Source: an uncultured Candidatus Saccharibacteria bacterium
Lineage (GTDB): Bacteria > Patescibacteriota > Minisyncoccia > Phycocordibacterales > UBA918
DNA: 27,666 nt
Direction: 5' to 3'
Assembly (NCBI GenBank): GCA_964442205.1
Contig: CAYTYF010000002.1
Span: 19,336 to 47,001, forward strand
In this document: positions 3,668 to 14,040 of the stretch, in pieces
Layout: every line of letters begins with the position of its first letter
Position numbering within the stretch: position 1 is the first letter of the stretch
Made by a program: the position numbers and the translations under genes
The notes under the pieces: generated by a model
Database searches by the model: none
What the model was told of the DNA's origin: nothing
Seen by the model: the letters and a program-made list of their open reading frames with translations, nothing else

Positions 3668-3944
3668 GCGAGTTACACTGTAGTCCGCAGTTGCCAAAGC
3701 AACCCCGGACATAGTTCACCGCTGTAGCTGTTGGTATCCTCCTTATGTTATTGCTGTCTGTGGAGCAGGGAAGCCCGCTCCATGTTCTAGAAAGTTCTGT
3801 CAAGGAACAGGTTGAGCTGGCATACATGTGCCGCACAACATTTTCGGTATAGTAGCAAATTAGTTAAAAAATATAGGCTCTGCACCAACACATACCTCAG
3901 ATTTGACGAAGTGTAAAGAAAGGGGTGGAAATGGAAATAGAACC

Positions 3945-4143
3945 GTCCCCGGAATCCTAAGCAAAATTTACACTACGTTCAATTTTGCTAAGGTTCCTGG
4001 ACGGCCGCTCGCATCGCGGGCATTAGGAATAGCCAGCGATATGCTGCGCGGCTTCGATTCCTGACGTACGCAACGAGGTTGCGTACTCTGGGGGCACACA
4101 TGACAAAAGACGGCTTGAGCCGTCTTTTGTCATGTGTGCCCCC
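3945..4143. mobile_element. tRNA-3'-end-associated structured element, tRNA-Arg-matched copy
   Basis: Hairpin 3956-3993 with loop TACACTACGTTC. GGCATTAGGAATAGCC hairpin at 4019-4034. Inverted tRNA-Arg 3' copy TTCGATTCCTG[AC GTACGCAAC GAG GTTGCGTAC T]CTGGGGGCAC at 4053-4097. Perfect 25-bp inverted repeat 4090-4114/4119-4143. The distal direct repeat (3945-3956) is degenerate. Confidence 0.75.
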
Positions 4144-4365
4144 GTGGCGTTGCGGAAAAATACCCATCAAGCCCTGTAAGCGTTTCTTGGTGACTGAAAT
4201 CAGTCTTTCCTGACCCCTCTCGGTAGGGCCTGTTTAAAGCCAGATGTTACAAATCTGACACCCAAACGGCCATTTAATAGGCAACGAATGAGCGATTTTT
4301 TAAAACGGATATGGCTCAAAATAAGGGTATTATCGCTAAAAAAGCCGGTAGTATAATAGAGGTAT

Positions 4366-5082
4366 ATGGACACAAGAAATACACTCTCTGCGCTCCGCCA
4401 AGCTCTCGTACGACGTAAAGCTATCGAGGATCAGGTACGGCAAGCGATAGAACCAATAAAACCAACGCTTCGCTTTATCGCTGAACTTCAGGCTATTTAT
4501 CAGGAAGTATACGGCGCTGAGCCAGTTGCTGAGATATCAGCGGAACCAGCTCTAGAGCCAGTGAAGCAGGTAAAGCCAAAGACCAAGAAGGAGGTCTTAT
4601 TCACTGAGGCGATAGTAAAACTCCCACTTAACGCTAAATGGGAGAAACTCACCATCAGTTTCATCAGTAGCCAAGATATTAAGGTGAAATACGGAGACAC
4701 AACCATCGGTGAGTATTCACACGAGGACTTAGGCTTTGCTCAAGATAATACTGAGTGGAAAAAACCAGACCGACGCTGGGCTCTTTTAACAGTACTGGCA
4801 GTCGCTAGTAAGTTTGAGCCAAAGATGGTGATGACGAAGGATCATCTAATGAACGTCTGCGGAGTGAAATCCCAGAATGCAGTTGAAAAACAAAAGAGTG
4901 ATCTAGCTAAAGGGCTACGCCTTGCGTTTGGCATCCAAGAAGATCCGTTTGAGCGATATACACACGAAACTGGCTACCAGCCCAAGTTCACCCTTCTGCC
5001 TGAAAAAGAGATGCGTGGCGATGGTGAACTACATCATTCAGGAGCGGTAGACTTTGAGGACGTAATATACCAAGACGACTAG
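4366..5082 (+). CDS. Hypothetical protein, possible C-terminal winged-helix DNA-binding domain
   Basis: 238 aa. TATAAT and AGAGG just upstream. C-terminal segment WALLTVLA...NAVEKQKSDLAKGLRLAFGIQEDPF...GY resembles a wHTH (pattern only). Confidence 0.6.
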   Translation: MDTRNTLSALRQALVRRKAIEDQVRQAIEPIKPTLRFIAELQAIYQEVYGAEPVAEISAEPALEPVKQVKPKTKKEVLFTEAIVKLPLNAKWEKLTISFISSQDIKVKYGDTTIGEYSHEDLGFAQDNTEWKKPDRRWALLTVLAVASKFEPKMVMTKDHLMNVCGVKSQNAVEKQKSDLAKGLRLAFGIQEDPFERYTHETGYQPKFTLLPEKEMRGDGELHHSGAVDFEDVIYQDD

Positions 5083-5131
5083 CTTTATAGTGCCCATATA
5101 AATAAGGGTTTACTGTGATAAAATAGGTTTT

Positions 5132-6838
5132 ATGTCAATCGAACGAGGAATTCGGCAAGATGAAACGTGGATCACATCTGATCCAGTAGTTGGGTGTGCT
5201 AAAAACTGCAACTACTGTTTTCTTCAAGGTTATGACAAGACTCAGAAACCAGGTATGCCGATTATGTCGACAGAAAAGGCTGTTGACCAGATTATTTCGT
5301 TCGAAAATTACAGAGAGGATAGTCCAATCATGGTTGGTAGCGAGACTGATGCTTTTATGAATCGGTCAAACATCGACTATTTCACAGAGCTGTTTAAAAC
5401 TTACGCCGAACGAGAGTTGCCAAATCCACTTGTGTTCTCGACTAAGTGCAAAATTCCAGATGAATTCATTGAACTTATAAAGGCAAATGAAGCAATTAAA
5501 ACAGTTTTTTATTTGAGCTACTCAGGTTTGCCACAGACACTGGAACCTGGAATAAAAGGAGATCAGATTAGAAGTAACTTTGAGAGACTCAAAGACGCGG
5601 AGATTCCAACTATCCATTACTGGCGACCGTTTCTCCCACAGAATTCTCATCGTGAAAAGATTCGAGAGATTATTGATTATGTGGCAGAACAAGCTACATG
5701 TAGTGTAGCAGTTGGTCTAAAGAGTAATGATGAAATCATTAAGCACTTGATAGCAGCGTGGCCTGAGCTTGGTGAAAATGCTGATCTGGCAAATCAGTCC
5801 GCTGATGTCTGGCCTGAAGGCGTGAGAGATTATGTAGAGCAGTATACGAGTGAGCGACATCCAGACTATCCGTTGTTTTGGGTGAATTCGTGCGCATTAG
5901 CTTATGCACTGCAACGACCTGATTTCAATGCCATGTTTGAAGGAACGGTATGTGCCGAAAATCATTGCCCTCCAGAACAACGAGAACGATGCGCTATTAA
6001 TCTTCTTGGATATAAGCCGACGAACGATGCCGTACAGGAAGCCTTAGATCAAATGGATTTAGATTACACTTTTGATCTAAACGAAGAAGAGAAGATGATT
6101 TATGTTGACGGTGATGTTAGTCACGGACAACTTATCTACCTGAGACAGAAACTTAACTATCCAATCAAAACACGTGGTGATTTTTCGAGCACCAATGAAT
6201 GGGCTGGTCAAGCATCAAACAGGGAATCAATGCACCTACCGTATGCTTCAGAAAATTTTGATATTGATGTTATCTGGGAACGTGCCCAGTATACTCGCAA
6301 TCTGTTTCGCTCAGTAGAAAGAATTCAGTGGGGTGCTGAACAGTACGCACTTGAGTTAATGGTGCAGGTTGGACACCTTTCTGATTTAGTGTTGCGACAA
6401 GAGCACAAACTTAACAAGCGTTCTGAAGAGGAAAACGCTGATGCTTTGGCTGATGAAATTAGCGATGTGATATTAAATATATTTTCAATTGCCGACGAAT
6501 TTTCTTTGTCGTTGCCGAACTTACTTCGGGATGAAATGGGTTTAAAGCGAACGGAAATAGTAGACAGTGCGCAGTTGGTTGAGGGAAAGCGAATTGAGTC
6601 TGAAGAACAGATTAGTCAGGCAATGCTTGAGCTGTCAAAACAGTCTGCCTTACTTGCGAGCATGGTTACTGAAGTGGTGGAAGATAAAGCAAAGAAAGAA
6701 GACTTAAAGAAAGTTCTCCTAGAAGCGTTTGACGCTGCTATGGCAGTGCTTGATTTCTATAAGGTCAATTTGCATAAAGCTTTCGACAAAATGATCCTAG
6801 AGTCAGAAGCCTTTGTAGAGAAGAATAAGCTTGAATAA
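5132..6838 (+). CDS. Radical SAM enzyme (spore-photoproduct-lyase-like clade) fused to tandem MazG-like NTP pyrophosphatase-fold domains
   Basis: CxxxCxxC motif GCAKNCNYC near the N-terminus; LSYSGL..EP and HYWRP motifs. C-terminal ELMVQVGHL...LADEISDVILNIFSIAD and AMLELSKQSALL repeats have the MazG/dUTPase all-alpha pattern. Confidence 0.75.
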   Translation: MSIERGIRQDETWITSDPVVGCAKNCNYCFLQGYDKTQKPGMPIMSTEKAVDQIISFENYREDSPIMVGSETDAFMNRSNIDYFTELFKTYAERELPNPLVFSTKCKIPDEFIELIKANEAIKTVFYLSYSGLPQTLEPGIKGDQIRSNFERLKDAEIPTIHYWRPFLPQNSHREKIREIIDYVAEQATCSVAVGLKSNDEIIKHLIAAWPELGENADLANQSADVWPEGVRDYVEQYTSERHPDYPLFWVNSCALAYALQRPDFNAMFEGTVCAENHCPPEQRERCAINLLGYKPTNDAVQEALDQMDLDYTFDLNEEEKMIYVDGDVSHGQLIYLRQKLNYPIKTRGDFSSTNEWAGQASNRESMHLPYASENFDIDVIWERAQYTRNLFRSVERIQWGAEQYALELMVQVGHLSDLVLRQEHKLNKRSEEENADALADEISDVILNIFSIADEFSLSLPNLLRDEMGLKRTEIVDSAQLVEGKRIESEEQISQAMLELSKQSALLASMVTEVVEDKAKKEDLKKVLLEAFDAAMAVLDFYKVNLHKAFDKMILESEAFVEKNKLE

Positions 6839-6843
6839 TTAGT

Positions 6844-7488
6844 ATGGAAAATGAACAATTAACCACTTACAACGCCTTCAATCAGCCCATTGGGAAAGCT
6901 GATCGATCTGAAGTGCATAAAAACGGTTTATGGCACCGGTCAGTGAACTACTTAGTTCTCGATCAGCAAAAGCGGACTCTAATCTTTCAAGATTCAAAGA
7001 CTCTAGATCAATTCGATAAGGACACCTTTTTTATCAAGATGAATGGTGGTCATGTTCAGGGTGATGATATGAAAAGTGAGATGGCTCGCGAACTGCATGA
7101 AGAGCTCGGTTTGGAAGCATCTCAAGCGTTGAACATACATTTTCTAGGTGTGTATCAAGTATCGTTCGAGCCAACGGAGGATTTTGTAAACCGTGAGTTC
7201 ATGTATTTTTATCTAGTGAGTTTTGAGAACGTACTACAAAATGTTGGTATGGATGATGCTGAAGTGAAGACAGTTTTAGAAATCCCGATTGATGACACAG
7301 TCGATTTGTTAACTGGTGGGAGAGTGGAAGTTGAGGTGTCTGCAAAAGATGTAAATAGTACAGAAATGAATCTGACTCTCACAAACGAGGCATTCAAGAA
7401 TTTTACCGACGATGCATTGTACTTGAGACTTTTCTTGGCAGCGCAAGATTTTTGCAACGGTAGAGATCCTAAACACATTGTAATTTAG
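6844..7488 (+). CDS. Nudix hydrolase, IPP-isomerase-like subfamily
   Basis: R.EVHKNGLWHRSV N-terminus; Nudix box GGHVQGDDMKSEMARELHEELGL. Starts 5 nt after the radical SAM stop. Confidence 0.85.
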   Translation: MENEQLTTYNAFNQPIGKADRSEVHKNGLWHRSVNYLVLDQQKRTLIFQDSKTLDQFDKDTFFIKMNGGHVQGDDMKSEMARELHEELGLEASQALNIHFLGVYQVSFEPTEDFVNREFMYFYLVSFENVLQNVGMDDAEVKTVLEIPIDDTVDLLTGGRVEVEVSAKDVNSTEMNLTLTNEAFKNFTDDALYLRLFLAAQDFCNGRDPKHIVI

Positions 7489-7520
7489 AACACCCTCGAC
7501 CGGACATGGTCGAGGGTGTT
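7489..7520. terminator. Hairpin between convergent Nudix and NDK genes
   Basis: 13-bp perfect stem AACACCCTCGACC/GGTCGAGGGTGTT with a 6-nt loop. No clear U-tract. Confidence 0.65.
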
Positions 7521-7541
7521 GGTTATGGAGCGTGTTTCGTA

Positions 7542-7961
7542 TCAGAATAGTGACATAACTCGCTCCTTCGAGAAAAAGATCACAGCTTCTCGGAAGAACT
7601 GGTCGAAGTTCATGCTCGAATGTGCGAGGTTGTTGGCTATGTCGGTCCCCATCTTCCGAATGGTTCCCGGCGGACTGAGCTGCGGTTCGTTGATGCCGAC
7701 CAGAAAGTTCAGGCGATCAACTGCTCTGCGGCCGGTGACGATTATTCCGTGACACTCGCCAGAAGTGATGTGCCGGCAGAGGTCTGCGAAGTAGGCTTCC
7801 TCGGCACATTGTTGATAGAACAGCCTCGCCTCAGGAAGAGTGAGACTGCGACGGTCTTGCATAACGATCTCCAACCCGCTGTTGGTGATCATTTCAAGAC
7901 ACTGCTCGACGAGTTCGCGCTCGACACAGTCAGGTTTCAGAAGACACATTGAGTAGATCAT
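7542..7961 (-). CDS. ndk: Nucleoside diphosphate kinase (divergent)
   Basis: LLKPDCVER, PGTIR and NLAHSS (catalytic His). GGAGGT SD precedes the ATG at 7961. 139 aa. Confidence 0.85.
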   Translation of the reverse strand: MIYSMCLLKPDCVERELVEQCLEMITNSGLEIVMQDRRSLTLPEARLFYQQCAEEAYFADLCRHITSGECHGIIVTGRRAVDRLNFLVGINEPQLSPPGTIRKMGTDIANNLAHSSMNFDQFFREAVIFFSKERVMSLF

Positions 7962-8098
7962 TGAACCACCTCCATTGGTGCGAAAATTGGTGTCTGGCTG
8001 CATAATGCCATTATTTTGATAAAAAGCAAGGTTTTCGCTGAAATCTCAGCAGTAGATGGTAGAGGGACCATTAATATAAAACACCCTCGCAATCTACT

Positions 8099-9373
8099 AT
8101 GAGTAATAAAATTACTTGGCACACCGAGACTCGCAAAGTCGATGATCTCGTGCCATACGACAAGAACCCTCGCACCTTGTCGGACAAACAACGTAAAGAC
8201 CTTGAAGCGAGCATTATCAAGTTCTCTCTAGCGGAGATTCCTGCGATCAACACCGATAACACTATCGTGGCAGGGCACGCCAGACTGAAGGTAATGCAAC
8301 TACTCGGTCGCGGGCAAGAAAAAATTGACGTGCGAGTACCAAACCGCACCCTTACCAAAAAAGAGTTCGAGGAATACCTCCTGCGTTCCAATAAGAATAC
8401 CGGCTCGTGGGACTACGAGCTCTTGCAAGGCTTCGATACTGAATTCCTCTTGGATATCGGATTCGATGACGGCGACCTCTCTGACATCTGGGACGATGTG
8501 CTCGAGATTGATGACGATGAGTTCAATCCAGAGAAGGAGCTGAAGAAAGCTGAGAAAACTGACATTAAGTCTGGTGACTTCTTCAAGCTCGGTAGCCACT
8601 ATCTCATCTGTGGTGACAGCACGAACCCCGAGACAGTGAAGCGACTCGTTGGTGATACCAAGATCGACATGTCATATGTAGATATTCCGTACAATATCGG
8701 ACTTTCGTACGATAAAGGCATCGGTGGCAAGAAGAGCTACGGCGGTGTCGTTGACGATAAGAAGACAGACGCTGAGTACCGCACCTTTGTACGTACACTA
8801 ATGCAAAATGCGGTGGACGTTTCTGCTAAGGACTCGCACCACATCTGGTACTGCGATTCAGCGTATGTAGGCATGCTTCAAAACCTATTCGTTGAGGCAG
8901 GTATCGCATACAAACGCACTGCACTTTGGATCAAAAACGGTATCAATCCAACGCCACAAGTAGCGTTCTCGAAAATCTACGAGCCTGCGCTCTACGGCAC
9001 GATTGGTAAACCGTACCTCTCTAAGAAACACACCAAGCTCGCCGAGATTCTGAATAAAGATATCGGTATTGGTAACGCTACCATCGATGATGTCACTGAC
9101 ATGATCGATATCTGGCTCGCTAAGCGTGACGCAGGTCAATCCTACGATCACCCAACGCAGAAACCGCTGTCTCTGCATGAGCGACCACTTAACCGTTGCA
9201 CCAAGATCGGTGATAACGTACTCGATCTCTGTGGTGGTTCAGGTTCAACCCTCCTTGCGTGTGAGCAAATGAAACGTAATGCGTTTCTGGTCGAGCTCAA
9301 CCCCGTCTTTGTTCAGGTAATCATCAACCGCTATGAAAAATTCACTGGCACCAAAGCTACCAAGATCAATTAA
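8099..9373 (+). CDS. ParB/Srx-N domain fused to an N6/N4 DNA methyltransferase (beta arrangement)
   Basis: LVPYDKNPR...IVAGHARL (ParB-like). DIPY catalytic motif variant, HPTQKP, and VLDLCGGSGSTL SAM-binding motif. Confidence 0.85.
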   Translation: MSNKITWHTETRKVDDLVPYDKNPRTLSDKQRKDLEASIIKFSLAEIPAINTDNTIVAGHARLKVMQLLGRGQEKIDVRVPNRTLTKKEFEEYLLRSNKNTGSWDYELLQGFDTEFLLDIGFDDGDLSDIWDDVLEIDDDEFNPEKELKKAEKTDIKSGDFFKLGSHYLICGDSTNPETVKRLVGDTKIDMSYVDIPYNIGLSYDKGIGGKKSYGGVVDDKKTDAEYRTFVRTLMQNAVDVSAKDSHHIWYCDSAYVGMLQNLFVEAGIAYKRTALWIKNGINPTPQVAFSKIYEPALYGTIGKPYLSKKHTKLAEILNKDIGIGNATIDDVTDMIDIWLAKRDAGQSYDHPTQKPLSLHERPLNRCTKIGDNVLDLCGGSGSTLLACEQMKRNAFLVELNPVFVQVIINRYEKFTGTKATKIN

Positions 9374-10148
9374 GACGGGGGACATCATCTGTCTTGGTGA
9401 GCACGTCCTTATCTGCGGTGATTCTTCCAAGGTAGACCTCTCTGTCTACGGGAACATCGACCTCTTGCTGACCGACCCGCCGTACGGCGTGGACTACGCT
9501 GAAAGCAAGCGTGGCATCGGCAAGATTGCCAAGGATAAAGACATCTCTAATGACGGATTTATGTCCGACCAACAGTACGTTGAGTTCACGAAGAGCTGGC
9601 TTTCTCCAGCACTGGTGAAGCTGTCCAAGAAAAACAGCATCTACATCTTCAATTCCGACAAGATGATCTTCGCTCTCCGTCAGGCCTGCCTTGAGGCAGG
9701 TATGAAAATTGCCCAACTTATCGTCTGGGTGAAGGATCGAGCGATTGTCGGGAGACTCGACTACCTGCCGCAACACGAACTCATTCTCTACGGCTGGAAA
9801 GGTACGCACGACTTCAAGCGTGGCAAAGACAAGTCAGTCGCGTTCTACCCAAAGCCTTCGCAAAGCAAACTCCACCCGACGATGAAACCAGTCGGACTAC
9901 TCCGCAGACTGATTCTTAACAGTACGAAGGTTGGTGACACCGTCTATGACCCATTTGGTGGCAGTGGCTCAACCTTGATTGCCTGCGAGCATACGAAGCG
10001 TAAGTGTATTACGGTCGAGATGGATCCAGAATATTGCGAAACCATCGTTGCTCGCTGGCTAAAACTCACTGGTAATGGACAAGCGCGAGAAGCGGATACA
10101 GGAGCGGATCCTGAAACAGCAAGAGAAAGTACTCCAGTCTCTGCGTGA
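9333..10148 (+). CDS. Second N6/N4 DNA methyltransferase
   Basis: LTDPPYG, HPTMKPVGL and DPFGGSGST motifs. Overlaps both neighbours. Confidence 0.9.
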   Translation: MKNSLAPKLPRSIKTGDIICLGEHVLICGDSSKVDLSVYGNIDLLLTDPPYGVDYAESKRGIGKIAKDKDISNDGFMSDQQYVEFTKSWLSPALVKLSKKNSIYIFNSDKMIFALRQACLEAGMKIAQLIVWVKDRAIVGRLDYLPQHELILYGWKGTHDFKRGKDKSVAFYPKPSQSKLHPTMKPVGLLRRLILNSTKVGDTVYDPFGGSGSTLIACEHTKRKCITVEMDPEYCETIVARWLKLTGNGQAREADTGADPETARESTPVSA

Positions 10149-10515
10149 ATCGGGTAACGTGAGCTTTGCGTGCAAGAAGGCTGGTCTCAGTCGAGAGACG
10201 TACTATCGCTGGATGAAGGAGGATGAAGACTTTGCAGTACAGGCTGATAAAGCGATTGGTGACGGCAAGAGTTATGTAAATGACTTGGCGCATAATCAGC
10301 TTATGCGAAGTATCAGTGAAGGCTACTTTCCAGCCATCAAGTTTCAGTTGAGTAACTGTCACGATGATTATCATCCGAAGAAGACCACTTCACCGTACCG
10401 TCTTGAAGAGATGACACCACCAATCACGATTACCTCCATTCCAACTATCGCTCGCCTTGAGCGATATCGAGAGTTTATCGAGAATGGAGGTCACCCCGAC
10501 GATTGGGAAGGATAA
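10075..10515 (+). CDS. Phage terminase-small-subunit-like HTH protein (phBC6A51-like)
   Basis: LQSLRESGNVSFACKKAGLSRETYYRWMKEDEDF HTH pattern, located immediately after a ParB-MTase as in phage packaging modules. Confidence 0.7.
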   Translation: MDKREKRIQERILKQQEKVLQSLRESGNVSFACKKAGLSRETYYRWMKEDEDFAVQADKAIGDGKSYVNDLAHNQLMRSISEGYFPAIKFQLSNCHDDYHPKKTTSPYRLEEMTPPITITSIPTIARLERYREFIENGGHPDDWEG

Positions 10516-10549
10516 AAAATAAACCACTGTACGTCAGTGGTTTATTTTT
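10514..10549. terminator. Bidirectional terminator
   Basis: AAAAATAAACCACTG-TACGT-CAGTGGTTTATTTTT inverted repeat between convergent reading frames. Confidence 0.75.
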
Positions 10550-10760
10550 ACATTCCCGCCCTCGCGCAGTCTGCTTTCTCAATATCTTTCCACTTAAGGT
10601 AGTTTGGCTGGTCTTCGGCTTGCAGATAGGCGGCTGTGACCATTCCTGCTTGTACGCATATTTCAATTGCGTCACCACCTTGTTTGGCAAGGTTGTATTG
10701 TCGGACAGAATCAGCTGCGACTTGGTCTTCAATTTTATTGAGGTCATTAGCCGCCAGGTC
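10548..10760 (-). pseudogene. 5'-truncated gene fragment (70 codons) starting right after the tRNA-Arg 3' end
   Basis: Frame not in the ORF track: DLAANDLNKIEDQVAADSVRQYNLAKQGGDAIEICVQAGMVTAAYLQAEDQPNYLKWKDIEKADCARAGM*. Protein-like, has no N-terminal start, and ends at the terminator. Confidence 0.6.
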
Positions 10761-10771
10761 TCACTATTGGG

Positions 10772-10843
10772 TGCCCCCAGCAGGAATCGAACCTACATCA
10801 AGAGCTTAGAAGTCTCCTGTTCTATCCATTGAACTATGGGGAC
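10772..10843 (-). tRNA. tRNA-Arg(UCU)
   Basis: Cloverleaf: acceptor GTCCCCA/TGGGGGC, anticodon loop CTTCTAA, T-loop TTCGATT. No encoded CCA. Confidence 0.95.
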
Positions 10844-10960: not shown

Positions 10961-11176
10961 TCAGATGTCAGCCCAGTCAGTGAAACGCATGGGTTTCTGA
11001 GGCCTTACTGTGAGCAACAGATTAGCAGTGCCTGGTCCGTCCTTCTTGGGCGTTTGTGCTTGCATGTGTCGCTCACGGTCATCGGAATCGCCTTGCTGTC
11101 TCCTGTCCTGGTACCCGCCATCCCCATGCTGCTGTCCTGGATGGGGATAGATGTGGTTTGATGTGTCTTGTGCCAT
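10961..11176 (-). CDS. Small hydrophilic orphan protein ending in RFTDWADI (71 aa)
   Basis: Strong SD (GGAGGTG / GGGAG) upstream, and an AT-rich promoter-like region (TTGCTT...TATAAG) before it. Confidence 0.6.
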   Translation of the reverse strand: MAQDTSNHIYPHPGQQHGDGGYQDRRQQGDSDDRERHMQAQTPKKDGPGTANLLLTVRPQKPMRFTDWADI

Positions 11177-11259
11177 TTCTCCCTTCCTTCACCTCCGTCT
11201 ACTTATAACACCACATAATTTTTAAAAAAGCAATTTTTATCAATCTGTACCTGTGTATA

Positions 11260-11486: not shown

Positions 11487-11607
11487 TTGAGCGTTCCTCT
11501 TTCCTCGTCCGAAATAGAGCGAGGATAAAAGTACGATACGCTGAAATTTTAATTTGTAAACGGTGTGGTGAGACTTGGTCACTCTCATGGATCTTTTCTG
11601 ATAAATA

Positions 11608-11802
11608 ATGAGAGATTTGTCCCGCTTTTTCTAAACTCACTACGTTCGCTAAGAATGCTGGACGCAGCCCACTCGTTTTGGCATTAAGATAGCCAAAACA
11701 TCCTTCCGCTGTTCAAGTCTCTACGGAAAGCACGCAGGTGCTTTCCTCATCGTGCACGAATAAAAAATCGCCCACACAAAGGTGAGCTGATTTTTATACT
11801 CG
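11608..11802. mobile_element. tRNA-3'-end-associated structured element, tRNA-Val-matched copy, directly abutting the tRNA
   Basis: Direct repeat ATGAGAGATTTG (11608-11619) vs tRNA 11809-11820, 1 mismatch. CACTACGTTC loop. TTTTGGCATTAAGATAGCCAAAA hairpin. Inverted tRNA copy GTTCAAGTCTCT[AC GGAAAGCAC GCAG GTGCTTTCC T]CATCGTGCAC at 11711-11757. Spacer hairpin. Confidence 0.8.
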
Positions 11803-11875
11803 TGCGCGATGAGAGACTTGAACTCCCGACCTTCTCGGTGTAAACGAGCTGCTCTACCAACTGAGCTAATCGCGC
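11803..11875 (-). tRNA. tRNA-Val(UAC)
   Basis: Acceptor GCGCGAT/ATCGCGC, anticodon loop TTTACAC, T-loop TTCAAGT. No CCA. Confidence 0.95.
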
Positions 11876-13720: not shown

Positions 13721-13804
13721 GTCCAGGTGGCGAAATTGGTAGACGCGCTACCTTGAGGGGGTAGTGGGAGTTATCCCGTGCTGGTTCAAATCCAGTCCTG
13801 GACA
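13721..13804 (+). tRNA. tRNA-Leu(GAG)
   Basis: Acceptor GTCCAGG/CCTGGAC, anticodon loop TTGAGGG, long variable arm, T-loop TTCAAAT. No CCA. Confidence 0.95.
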
Positions 13805-13973
13805 CATGCAATATAAGGACGCGCTTAGGCGCGTCTTTTGCATGTGCCCAGGACTGGATTTAGAAGGCGAGCGACGTGAGGGGCAATTCTTAATGCCCCG
13901 AGCCAGTGATGCCTGGGCAGGTAACTCTTATGAGCGTAGCGAATTAGAGTTGGACGCCAAATCCAGTCTTGAC
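13805..13973. mobile_element. tRNA-3'-end-associated structured element, tRNA-Leu-matched copy (more diverged, opposite orientation)
   Basis: Spacer hairpin, then inverted tRNA copy GTGCCCAGGACTGGATTT (13844-13861). GGGGCAATTCTTAATGCCCC hairpin (13880-13899). AACTCT...GAGCGTAGCGA...AGAGTT hairpin (13923-13951). Direct repeat AAATCCAGTCTTGAC (13959-13973). Confidence 0.75.
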
Positions 13974-14040
13974 CGATTCGTGATCAAAAGTTCTGTGTGA
14001 CCTGATCCAGTCATTGCATCAAGCCTGCTATACTACTGCC

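Follow-up and report, generated by a model that had tools for sequence, protein, structure and literature searches.

The DNA analysed here (the window, 27,666 nt) belongs to a genome of 0.93 Mb that is 98% complete and contains 33 tRNA genes. Five copies of a non-coding module lie in the window, and the originally predicted positions and order of parts were confirmed for all five. Read in the sense of the tRNA, its 3' end is followed by a terminator hairpin (T1), an inverted copy of tRNA nt ~53-74 (I), two hairpins (hp2 and then hp1), and a direct repeat that starts in the T-loop (D). In antisense orientation, the hp2 loop reads ATTAGGAAT and the hp1 loop CACTACGYTC. The idea that these loop motifs are common to the copies holds in part; they are not universal, as the hp1 tip of the Gly-TCC copy on contig C34 differs.

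A perfect hairpin of 9-11 bp (hpX) interrupts I in four of the five window copies, its place being exactly the junction of acceptor and T stem; the Leu copy has no hpX. On the inverted strand, hpX lies exactly between tRNA positions 65 and 66, the site where nt 8-48 leave a real tRNA, and this arrangement is tRNA-like on the sense strand only. The modules, their tRNA genes and the associated island are located as follows (R1, covariance model).

3933-4143, minus strand: Arg-TCT-matched copy (R1, 71.9 bits), with T1 4090-4143, I_A 4088-4097, hpX 4064-4087, I_T 4053-4063, hp2 4011-4044, hp1 3956-3993 and a D remnant at 3933-3944
4144-10769, minus strand: accessory island of 6.6 kb between tRNA-Arg-TCT and its module (Pfam scan)
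10770-10843, minus strand: tRNA-Arg(TCT), cognate of the copy at 3933-4143 (ARAGORN and Rfam)
11604-11618, minus strand: D of the Val copy, decayed, derived from the tRNA-Val 3' end (10/18 identity)
11619-11699, minus strand: core of the Val copy, with P1-hp1-P1 at 11619-11664 and hp2 at 11675-11699 (R1, 81.6 bits; covarying helices)
11711-11757, minus strand: I of the Val copy (I_A 11746-11757, I_T 11711-11722), agreeing at 19/20 positions with the reverse-complemented tRNA-Val 3' end
11726-11745, minus strand: hpX of the Val copy, splitting I
11758-11801, minus strand: T1 of the Val copy, a bidirectional terminator hairpin in the gap between tRNA-Val and the module, terminator-like on both strands
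11802-11875, minus strand: tRNA-Val(TAC), host gene of the Val copy (ARAGORN and Rfam)
13721-13805, plus strand: tRNA-Leu(GAG), host gene of the Leu copy (ARAGORN and Rfam)
13806-13974, plus strand: Leu copy (R1, 58.9 bits), with T1 13806-13843, I 13844-13865, hp2 13873-13908, hp1 13923-13951 and D 13959-13974
24976-25168, minus strand: first His copy, His1 (R1, 92 bits), with T1 25133-25168, I_A 25123-25132, hpX 25098-25122, I_T 25086-25097, hp2 25044-25077, hp1 region 24992-25038 and D 24976-24992
25906-26100, minus strand: second His copy, His2 (R1, 92 bits), whose core equals that of His1; hpX (26030-26055) and T1 (26061-26100) differ in sequence, with the pairing kept
27612-27666, minus strand: 3' part of tRNA-His(GTG), cut by the contig end, identical once reverse-complemented to the tRNA-His 3' end of contig C24

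An older D-like remnant is seen beyond the D of the Val copy (~11565-11590), and the partial tRNA-His gene was missed by ARAGORN. The expectation that the copies adjoin their tRNA genes proved right for the Val and Leu copies only; the Arg copy lies 6.6 kb downstream of tRNA-Arg-TCT, and the two His copies are found 1.5 and 2.4 kb downstream of tRNA-His.

The helices of the modules covary, with compensatory changes in 19 of 27 and 13 of 19 predicted pairs, and folding z-scores are around -5. The tip motif is G(N)NA, occurring as GTAG, GGAG, GAAG, GTCAG and other variants. The tRNA-sense strand displays stable, purine-rich G(N)NA tips together with tandem G.A pairs, and its composition is rRNA-like (G 0.31, C 0.24). 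Two indicators of the active strand were tried, and neither singled out one strand. Folding energy was better for the sense strand in 16 of 18 copies, but since the z-scores obtained with shuffled sequences were -5.2 versus -4.9, this stability of the sense strand is compositional. RNAalifold and G.U counts gave no clear preference either, and the RNAalifold folds were equally good on both strands.

Match of the arms to the cognate tRNA

As proposed in the original prediction, the arms track the cognate tRNA, which was found for all 18 curated copies at 16 tRNA genes; in the window, the tRNAs concerned are Arg-TCT, Val-TAC, Leu-GAG and His. The mean identity to the cognate tRNA across the curated copies is 89% for I and 86% for D. 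Within the window, I matches at 19/20 positions in the Val, Arg and His2 copies, at 17/20 in the Leu copy and at 20/20 in His1, and the respective values for D are 10/18 (Val and Arg), 16/18 (His2), 12/18 (Leu) and 17/18 (His1). A D of 17/18 or 18/18 is present in 9 of the 18 curated copies. In a chance control, I or D with at most one mismatch was found at 16 of 29 tRNAs, and for mismatched tRNA/flank pairs at 7/810 (I) and 2/810 (D).

In five old copies, I has accumulated 7 mismatches in 100 nt, compared with 35 in 90 nt for D. I stays complementary to the 3' end of the living tRNA, while D is a fresh copy of the local target that subsequently decays. The persistence of I could be due to hairpin-templated correction rather than to selection. 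D is usually 15-20 nt long and reaches 46 nt at Phe, where it includes the terminator, and a fixed staggered cut does not account for this range of 15-46 nt, nor does a single crossover point. The copy at Pro-GGG has a perfect D (18/18), and its inverted acceptor arm (I_A) fits tRNA-Leu-TAG and not tRNA-Pro. Because this copy bears the inverted arm of another tRNA, the strict base-pairing guide that had been suggested is disfavoured.

Load, turnover and cargo of the modules

Modules are present at about 20 of the 33 tRNA genes (~60%), some of them in tandem (Leu-CAA, Glu-CTC, Lys and Ser-TGA). They lie directly downstream and in the same orientation at Val, Leu, Gly-TCC, Arg-TCG and about 16 more tRNAs; the tmRNA gene of the genome carries no module. 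At many loci, D is followed by the original terminator (T2). At least four core families occur in the genome, with 8 copies of the R1 subfamily and ~40 module-like stretches of all families. Motif counts were dismissed as a proxy for module load, their specificity being too low. Near-identical cores are found at Gly-TCC, Arg-TCG and Arg-TCT with different arms, each matched to its own tRNA, and cores are thus exchanged between tRNA loci.

The covariance model R1 matches 81 of 101 genomes of the genus, with 1-10 matches each and a patchy distribution; in 150 genomes that belong to other genera of the phylum, it has no match. A spread across classes of Patescibacteria, considered on the basis of a 16-mer scan of named genomes, was rejected. 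Since several of these MAGs belong to the same GTDB genus and R1 finds 0/150 outside it, our claim is kept to a genus-wide presence of the core family. A search of Rfam 15 at gathering and permissive thresholds returned no match to the modules; only tRNAs reach gathering, and the best other hits have E values of at least 0.3.

The anticipated presence/absence variation is borne out at the orthologous tRNA-Val site and between two DNA runs (X1 and X2). Among 20 relatives, the tRNA-Val site is empty in 7 and filled in 13. The filled sites hold cores of families A, B, C and D, and the arms are always matched to Val; in one relative (G071), T1 and I are common with this genome and the core is different. 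Run X2 lacks 931 bp that are present in run X1 and correspond to one cassette plus one module, a deletion that may be plain homologous recombination between two repeats. In the same run, cassettes are joined by GGGCG alone, without a module between them. We saw neither excision products nor circular junctions, nor an isogenic pair of empty and filled sites, and no near-isogenic contigs were found by exact-protein look-up. New modules enter beside the intact tRNA, and older ones are displaced outward.

The space between the tRNA end and T1 can be occupied by cassettes of accessory genes. The Arg island encodes a radical SAM protein, a Nudix protein, an NDK, two DNA methylases and an HTH protein, and the 8-nt GGGGGCAC found at the tRNA end delimits it. 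At the other end of the window, tRNA-His (27612-27666) heads a cassette array that is punctuated by the His2 and His1 modules. Contigs C24 and C65 as well as the contig of the window itself end in or beside a module repeat; module repeats break assemblies at tRNA genes.

Mobility and alternative explanations

The view of the module as a non-coding, non-autonomous, tRNA-associated element is supported by our analysis. No recombinase was found in or beside the modules, including the Arg island (Pfam scan) and the His array. The only PF00589 member of the genome is a single Xer-like gene on contig C46, which scores below integron-integrase cut-offs. The suggested link to IS110 was not substantiated, as no DEDD recombinase (PF01548) was found in this 98% complete genome; reverse transcriptase and CsrA were likewise not found in it, and the genome, like many relatives, lacks canonical TnpA.

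Two RAYT-like HUH (Y1) genes are encoded in the genome, yet an enzyme of this kind was rejected as the mover, being dispensable across the genus. Family A occurs in 18 of 28 genomes free of Y1 and in 30 of 33 with Y1, which are raw counts from related genomes. One genome (G080) has 10 family-A copies and no Y1 gene, and the closed genome G062 carries fresh copies of other core families, also without a Y1 gene. Family E in G062 sits in a T-loop without a duplication. The proposed connection between GTAG and RAYT enzymes is therefore not supported, since the tip is G(N)NA and not a fixed GTAG, and 18 family-carrying genomes plus G062 lack Y1.

We favour, with about an even chance of being right, a gene-less, highly folded insertion module that colonises tRNA 3' ends and is a patescibacterial counterpart of the tRNA-linked repeats of E. 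coli. Such a module consists of T1, I (from the T-loop to just past the discriminator), a core of a mosaic family and D (from the T-loop to the tRNA end), with hpX as a hairpin of constant geometry that usually breaks I at the acceptor/T junction. Entry would proceed by Campbell-type or short-homology recombination with a crossover in the near-universal T-loop sequence. As a crossover in a non-cognate T-loop would give a chimeric, dead tRNA, moves between different tRNAs would need an extra repair step. Catalysis would be provided in trans and not by the module, by the single Xer-like recombinase, an outside enzyme or replication template switching, the latter acting at the T-arm and the terminator palindromes. 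On the tRNA-sense strand, I with its hpX may pair with the tRNA 3' end or with D. This pairing would rebuild a tRNA-like acceptor/T helix with a stand-in body, which may be recognised or processed as single-stranded DNA or as read-through RNA.

Alternatively, the modules could be RNA genes of the tRNA-linked-repeat type that are co-transcribed through T1 read-through, with mobility being secondary. I and D would then mimic the acceptor/T stack and hpX the body, and a stable small RNA resembling a tRNA would be set free by RNase P, 3' trimming and CCA addition. There is a precedent in E. coli (PMC8144298): flanked by two terminators, the repeats there are transcribed by read-through, and processing takes place at the 3' end that is repeated. 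The presence of T2 after D at many loci, the rRNA-like composition of the tRNA-sense strand and the position of hpX, tRNA-like on this strand only, are consistent with this explanation. The same is true of a metatranscriptome contig that covers exactly the Val module (11559-11797), although this contig is unstranded, has a depth of 2.3 and may stem from DNA carry-over. However, the Leu and His copies are not among the RNA contigs listed for two RNA runs, a strong terminator stands ahead of every module, and the decay of D in older copies means that the closing helix is not kept up. On balance, we regard RNA genes as an unlikely explanation.

A folded single-strand attachment site comparable to integron attC or CTX phage attP, used by the host Xer-like tyrosine recombinase, would let modules and cassettes stack as in an integron. 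The partner of I would be the tRNA 3' end as copied in the module itself, T1 would form the variable tip and hpX the asymmetric marker, so that single-stranded DNA, incoming or extruded, would offer the recombinase a copy of the tRNA target in double-stranded form. In line with this, I tracks the tRNA-proximal copy and not D, the sequence is variable while the geometry is constant and the hpX stems are perfect, and the G(N)NA tips and tandem G.A pairs are found on the tRNA-sense strand. The punctuated cassette array at tRNA-His, the presence or absence of one cassette between populations and the fact that the sole tyrosine recombinase is the single Xer-like protein also fit. On the other hand, there is no integron-type integrase and the role of Xer is only putative, the terminator stems contain no dif-like sequence obvious by eye, cassettes in run X2 are joined by GGGCG without a module, and the I of the Pro copy is mismatched. 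We consider an attachment site of this kind quite unlikely. Equally slim, in our estimate, is the chance of the most far-reaching reading, in which the module is a mobile element that has no recombinase and uses a copy of its target, folded into the shape of a tRNA, as attachment site. I and hpX would pair with the tRNA 3' end and thereby imitate the acceptor/T arm and the body, so that a housekeeping enzyme (the single Xer-like protein or one that recognises tRNA) could insert modules and cassettes at any tRNA gene, and the address would be rewritten after each move by hairpin-templated copying. If true, tRNA genes would be the anchor points of an integron-like cassette system, in bacteria seemingly devoid of mobile-element machinery.

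The originally proposed guide model is very unlikely; in it, I would pair, in the form of DNA or RNA, with the tRNA gene and bring a recombinase or HUH transposase acting in trans to this gene, similar to a bridge RNA or the guide sequences of IS608. I is indeed complementary to the target at nearly every locus and maintained, two RAYT-like Y1 proteins are available, and Y1 and family A are loosely associated in the raw counts from related genomes given above. These points are set against the Pro-GGG copy, with its perfect D and an I_A that fits tRNA-Leu-TAG, the 18 family-A genomes without Y1 (including G080 with its 10 copies) and the likewise Y1-free G062, and the negative searches for an IS110 DEDD enzyme and a reverse transcriptase. 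Moreover, I and its partner are fully self-complementary and would therefore pair in cis. Finally, it is highly improbable that the module encodes an antisense small RNA that starts near 11559, runs in the direction of the tRNA up to the bidirectional terminator and carries a tRNA 3'-end mimic (in young copies also a 5' segment antisense to that end), for although the RNA contig ends in the T-tract of the plus-strand terminator and begins 6 nt after a TTTAAT box, a consensus scan finds no promoter near 11559, the contig is a single unstranded one of low depth, and the purine-rich tips and tandem G.A pairs lie on the opposite strand.

Significance and comparison with known systems

Patescibacteria have tiny genomes in which only a few mobile-element enzymes can be recognised, and yet over half of the tRNA genes here bear a structured insert. 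The accessory genes in the module-held arrays comprise DNA methylases, Nudix and radical-SAM enzymes and a toxin-antitoxin pair, and identifying the mover would explain gene gain and loss in Patescibacteria. A compact principle for targeting tRNA genes might come to light as well.

Elements with tyrosine integrases that use T-loop and 3'-end sublocations of tRNA genes are reportedly among those surveyed by Williams in 2002. With such tRNA-targeting integrative elements, the modules have in common a direct repeat of the tRNA that covers its 3' part from the T-loop onwards or else its final 5-8 nt, an intact tRNA, tandem stacking with the newest element next to the tRNA, and accessory cargo; an attL/attR-like direct repeat of the tRNA 3' part beside an intact tRNA is seen in the modules as well. 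In contrast to these elements, no integrase is found in or near any unit, the units measure 100-200 nt, one core family serves many tRNAs, and an inverted copy of the target and a conserved fold are present.

Integron attC and CTX attP sites resemble the modules in their imperfect palindromes of variable sequence, conserved geometry and asymmetric protrusion, and in arrays of promoter-less cassettes with such sites between them. The modules differ from attC in that there is no IntI, no R/L box consensus is seen, and the palindrome comes from the 3' end of the host tRNA. Similarly, REP/REPIN sequences (RAYT) and IS200/IS605 palindromes are non-autonomous, hairpin-rich and intergenic, and some module tips contain GTAG. 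However, REP/REPINs are dispersed palindromes of 20-40 nt with a fixed 5' GTAG, whereas the modules are multi-helix folds of 100-200 nt at tRNA ends, and elements derived from IS200/IS605 make no target duplication, as opposed to 15-46 nt here.

The assumption that the modules are not a described family is right inasmuch as they have no Rfam match, and we found no description of such elements in Patescibacteria in the literature; it is too strong in that the tRNA-linked repeats (TLRs) of E. coli (Egan and Landy, 1978; Rudd, 1999; RrA/RrB/RrF and RttR, PMC8144298) have the same architecture. Like the modules, TLRs are units of ~100-180 nt that directly follow a tRNA or 5S gene, share its orientation and often occur in tandem; the final 18-19 nt of the gene are repeated at the end of each unit, which is often flanked by two terminators. 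In the tyrT/tyrV unit, we found an inverted 10-mer whose pairing with the repeat encloses a multibranch fold, in the same way as in the modules. A blastn search of a family-B unit against 5,426 E. coli genomes revealed no sequence link at E values up to 10. Unlike in the modules, the repeat of the TLRs takes in the encoded CCA, the inverted copy is shorter, hpX is missing, and there is no terminator inside the tyrT array. TLRs amount to 22 copies at 10 loci with presence/absence dynamics unreported, compared with ~60% of the tRNA genes and mosaic cores here. The E. coli TLRs are the closest described kind of element, common in architecture and not in sequence, and identifying the mover of the modules would give a rationale for these repeats, which have been known since 1978 and are unexplained.

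Modules in the window and across the source genome

All five copies were found where the original prediction had placed them, and reading the sequence bore out the predicted layout. In tRNA sense, every copy runs from a terminator hairpin (T1) through an inverted copy of the tRNA 3' end (I) and the core hairpins hp2 and hp1 to a direct repeat of the tRNA 3' end (D). I extends from just beyond the discriminator back into the T-loop of the tRNA, and D starts within the T-loop. The proposal that the arms track the cognate tRNA also held, as 17-20 of 20 positions of I and 10-17 of 18 positions of D are identical in the window copies. Three complete tRNA genes were identified in the window, while a partial tRNA-His, reported by neither ARAGORN nor Rfam, is truncated by the contig end. 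The assembly breaks at this gene, contig C24 stopping at the same tRNA as the window's contig.

tRNA genes in the window
10770-10843, minus strand: tRNA-Arg-TCT (ARAGORN and Rfam)
11802-11875, minus strand: tRNA-Val-TAC (ARAGORN and Rfam)
13721-13805, plus strand: tRNA-Leu-GAG (ARAGORN and Rfam)
27612-27666, minus strand: tRNA-His, final 55 nt only (exact reverse complement of the tRNA-His 3' end on C24)

The observation is confirmed and is a genome-wide feature that goes beyond these five copies. When the 3' flanks of all 33 tRNA genes of the source genome G000 (0.93 Mb, 76 contigs, 98% complete; the window is G000:C2:19336-47001) were read out, the module layout was present behind about 20. 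Under a strict rule allowing at most one mismatch, I or D was present at 16 of 29 testable tRNAs, compared with 7 (I) and 2 (D) of 810 mismatched tRNA/flank pairs used as a chance control. BLAST with 18 curated modules returned about 40 module-like stretches, some of them orphans whose arms suit distant or unassembled tRNAs.

The genome holds at least four core families, and relatives carry additional core types. A covariance model of the originally described family A core (R1) recovered exactly eight copies: the five in the window and those at Gly-TCC (C34), Arg-TCG (C65, truncated by the contig end) and Gln (C22). Reduced versions of family A are found at Gln, Met and Glu. Family B is hosted by Phe, Thr-GGT, Leu-CAA, Lys, Trp and Ser-CGA, and family C by Asp, Pro, Asn and Leu-TAG, the latter family also being a component of the Ser-TGA and Lys arrays. 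Leu-CAA, Glu-CTC, Lys and Ser-TGA have more than one module in tandem.

Two further arrangements were noted. Upstream of the intact tRNA-Glu-CTC (C13, ~4980-5225), a partial tRNA-Glu copy ending in the T-loop is followed by a family B core and a short T-loop/T-stem remnant; this looks like a tRNA copy disrupted by insertion into the T-loop. On C44 (1-430), the stretch of tRNA-Leu-TAG from variable arm to 3' end is repeated behind the gene, with a family C module next in line; here the duplicated part of the tRNA 3' half is larger.

Structure of the modules and fate of the arms

The cores of the two His copies, His1 and His2, are identical, while the sequences of T1 and of hpX, a hairpin splitting I, are unrelated with pairing kept. 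Likewise, the cores of the Gly-TCC, Arg-TCG and Arg-TCT copies are nearly identical, and the differences lie in hp1 tip, hpX, T1 and the arms. Each module is therefore a mosaic in which constant segments are combined with exchangeable hairpins. The modularity of the parts also follows from the tRNA-Val locus of a relative (G071), where T1 and I are common to G000 and the core belongs to family B. Compensatory double changes were found in 19 of 27 predicted pairs in a ten-copy alignment and in 13 of 19 in a 14-copy core alignment, and folding z-scores were about -5 on either strand.

In the Val, His1, His2 and Arg copies, I is split by hpX, a perfect hairpin of 9-11 bp. Among 11 curated copies with a full hpX, it lies at the acceptor/T-stem junction (tRNA positions 65/66), exactly or at most one base off, in ten; the exception is Val, where it lies about 3 bases within the T-stem. 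D is commonly followed by the apparent original tRNA terminator (T2), and the Phe repeat spans 46 nt including the terminator.

For five old copies (Val, Leu-GAG, Glu, Met and Arg), mismatches amount to 7/100 nt in I and 35/90 nt in D. The complementarity of I to the living tRNA end is thus preserved, and D decays freely. The match of I may be kept up by selection or by hairpin-templated correction across T1. Young copies show the opposite pattern, with a perfect D and a poorer I (15/20 for Asp, 16/20 for Leu-CAA). The Pro-GGG copy has a D of 18/18, yet its acceptor-side I matches tRNA-Leu-TAG, which hosts the same core family. It follows that I moves together with the module, that the local target serves as template or supplier of D, and that entry does not depend on a matched I. 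A strict base-pairing guide, as originally proposed, is at odds with this non-cognate arm.

In 16 of 18 copies, folding is better on the tRNA-sense strand. However, this advantage arises because the strand is G-rich (G 0.31 vs. C 0.24), z-scores being equal under dinucleotide shuffles, and folding energy was rejected as a strand indicator. In RNAalifold, the two strands were comparable in structure and G.U counts. Pointers toward the sense strand are the G(N)NA tips with flanking tandem G.A pairs and the tandem G.A pairs of hp2 variants that it carries, and hpX, which lies at the site corresponding to the tRNA body on this strand only. As single-stranded DNA, mini-hairpins of the GCGNAGC type have unusual stability.

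A metatranscriptome contig (run X7, 241 nt, depth 2.3), unstranded and possibly due to DNA carry-over, spans 11559-11797 and with it the Val module, from 45 nt past D to the T-tract of T1, ending 4 nt before the tRNA. Its right end agrees with a plus-strand (antisense) RNA terminating there and also with a sense RNA freed at the tRNA 3' end; a consensus scan found no plus-strand promoter upstream.

Of the RNA-library contigs listed for the window, the one with the greatest depth (27.6, run X8) covers 11035-11187, between tRNA-Arg-TCT and the next gene, with no convincing ORF or Rfam match. Apart from the modules, a second repeated RNA-like motif combines the same 16-nt hairpin (GGCTATTCCTAATGCC) with a GCGTAGC-type tip and has no Rfam match. 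It is not tRNA-adjacent and, in L008 at least, directly follows the stop codon of a protein gene.

Loci with the second RNA-like motif
L003, L008 (G007)
L004, L009 (G030)
L005, L010 (G025)
L116, L161, L187

Variation among relatives, cargo and candidate movers

Presence/absence variation at orthologous sites was borne out at tRNA-Val-TAC, where 7 of 20 genomes of the genus are empty, a plain terminator or a gene coming after the tRNA, and 13 are filled. The filled sites carry a core of family A, B, C or a fourth family, D, with both arms fitting tRNA-Val in 13/13. An older remnant resembling the direct repeat lies beyond the Val copy in G000, and hence the newest insertion is the tRNA-adjacent one. 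R1 matched 81 of 101 genomes of the genus (1-10 matches each). Across 130 further genera of the phylum, a search of 150 genomes, run under stricter filters and scoring part of the candidates, gave no match.

The closed relative G062 (951,832 bp) has modules at only about 8 of 39 tRNAs. It also contains family E (75 nt, CACCACAAGAG...CTAGGTC), which is embedded, in either orientation, in the T-loop of a duplicated, incomplete tRNA 3' part and has neither inverted arm nor terminator.

Family E sites in G062 (loci L041-L088)
518383: tRNA-Ile-TAT
151490: tRNA-Thr-TGT
615552: tRNA-Val-GAC

Where cargo is present, it occupies the interval from the tRNA end to T1. On a contig of DNA run X2, the end of the His cargo connects through one GGGCG to a second, diverged copy of the cargo's start. 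These boundaries and this junction indicate that cassettes use the last 5-8 nt of the tRNA, unlike the modules with their T-loop boundary.

Cargo in the window
Arg-TCT cargo: 6.6 kb, bounded by GGGGGCAC
26101-27612: His cargo, 1.5 kb, TauD-like and Nudix, adjoining tRNA-His, with the final 5 nt of the tRNA (GGGCG) at either end

An ORF (25781-25903 and 26101-26178) enters the His2 module and seems to resume beyond it, with ...RRIVE before and VVEDVRTVFEQ... after; the module is flanked by ATTGTAGA and GTTGTAGA. Either a small gene has been interrupted here or the two parts are homologous ends of cassettes.

In public reads, a contig of run X2 fuses 24992 to 25924 with zero depth in between, while run X1 has the intervening 931 bp, corresponding to one cassette and one His module. 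In both runs other DNA adjoins tRNA-His at 27612. This variation is at the population level and is compatible with insertion or with deletion between repeats.

The genome encodes one tyrosine recombinase, a 305-aa Xer-like protein above the XerA model cut-off, and two RAYT-like Y1 HUH proteins (222 and 230 aa), both under the NCBIfam cut-off. Neither an RVT_1 reverse transcriptase nor an IS110 DEDD enzyme was found in the genome, nor any recombinase in the accessory islands, and the suggested IS110 link is not supported. Y1 genes occur in 33 of 61 genomes of the genus; in counts that ignore relatedness, family A is present in 30 of the 33 Y1-carrying and 18 of the 28 Y1-free genomes. The association is loose and Y1 is clearly no requirement. 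G080 has ten family A copies and closed G062 has perfect-repeat copies of other core families, both without a Y1 gene, and the proposed HUH/RAYT transposase link was abandoned.

Interpretation and known systems

With moderate confidence, we read the modules as non-autonomous structured insertion modules of tRNA 3' ends, moved in trans, in which the inverted arm would be a structural partner of the tRNA 3' end and not a strict targeting guide. Less likely readings are read-through RNAs, i.e., RNA genes of the tRNA-linked-repeat type, and, with slightly lower probability, folded single-strand attachment sites resembling attC or CTX attP; these two readings are mutually compatible. A tyrosine-integrase island was rejected in view of the missing integrase, and by their defining tests the modules are not REP/REPIN-RAYT elements, IS200/IS605 derivatives, IS110 bridge-RNA elements or integron cassettes.

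The view that they belong to no described family stands in part: the modules have no match in Rfam 15 and no description of such elements was found in the literature on Patescibacteria, but the tRNA-linked repeats of E. coli share their plan. These comprise 22 units at ten loci, the function of most being unknown; those of the rrn loci, flanked by terminators T1 and T2, arise by read-through of T1 and undergo processing near the repeated end (PMC8144298). In the tyrT/tyrV array of E. coli K-12 (L095, tyrV-rttR region), every 178-nt unit contains GGGGAAGGAT, an inverted 10-mer of the T-stem/acceptor segment of tRNA-Tyr, which goes unmentioned in PMC8144298. The predicted fold has this 10-mer base-paired to the terminal repeat, which closes a multibranch structure. 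The tyrT/tyrV unit plan, with inverted and direct copy and multibranch closure, is that of the modules described here, although there is no sequence similarity. The modules are thus classed as working and built like tRNA-linked repeats, but not as their homologues.
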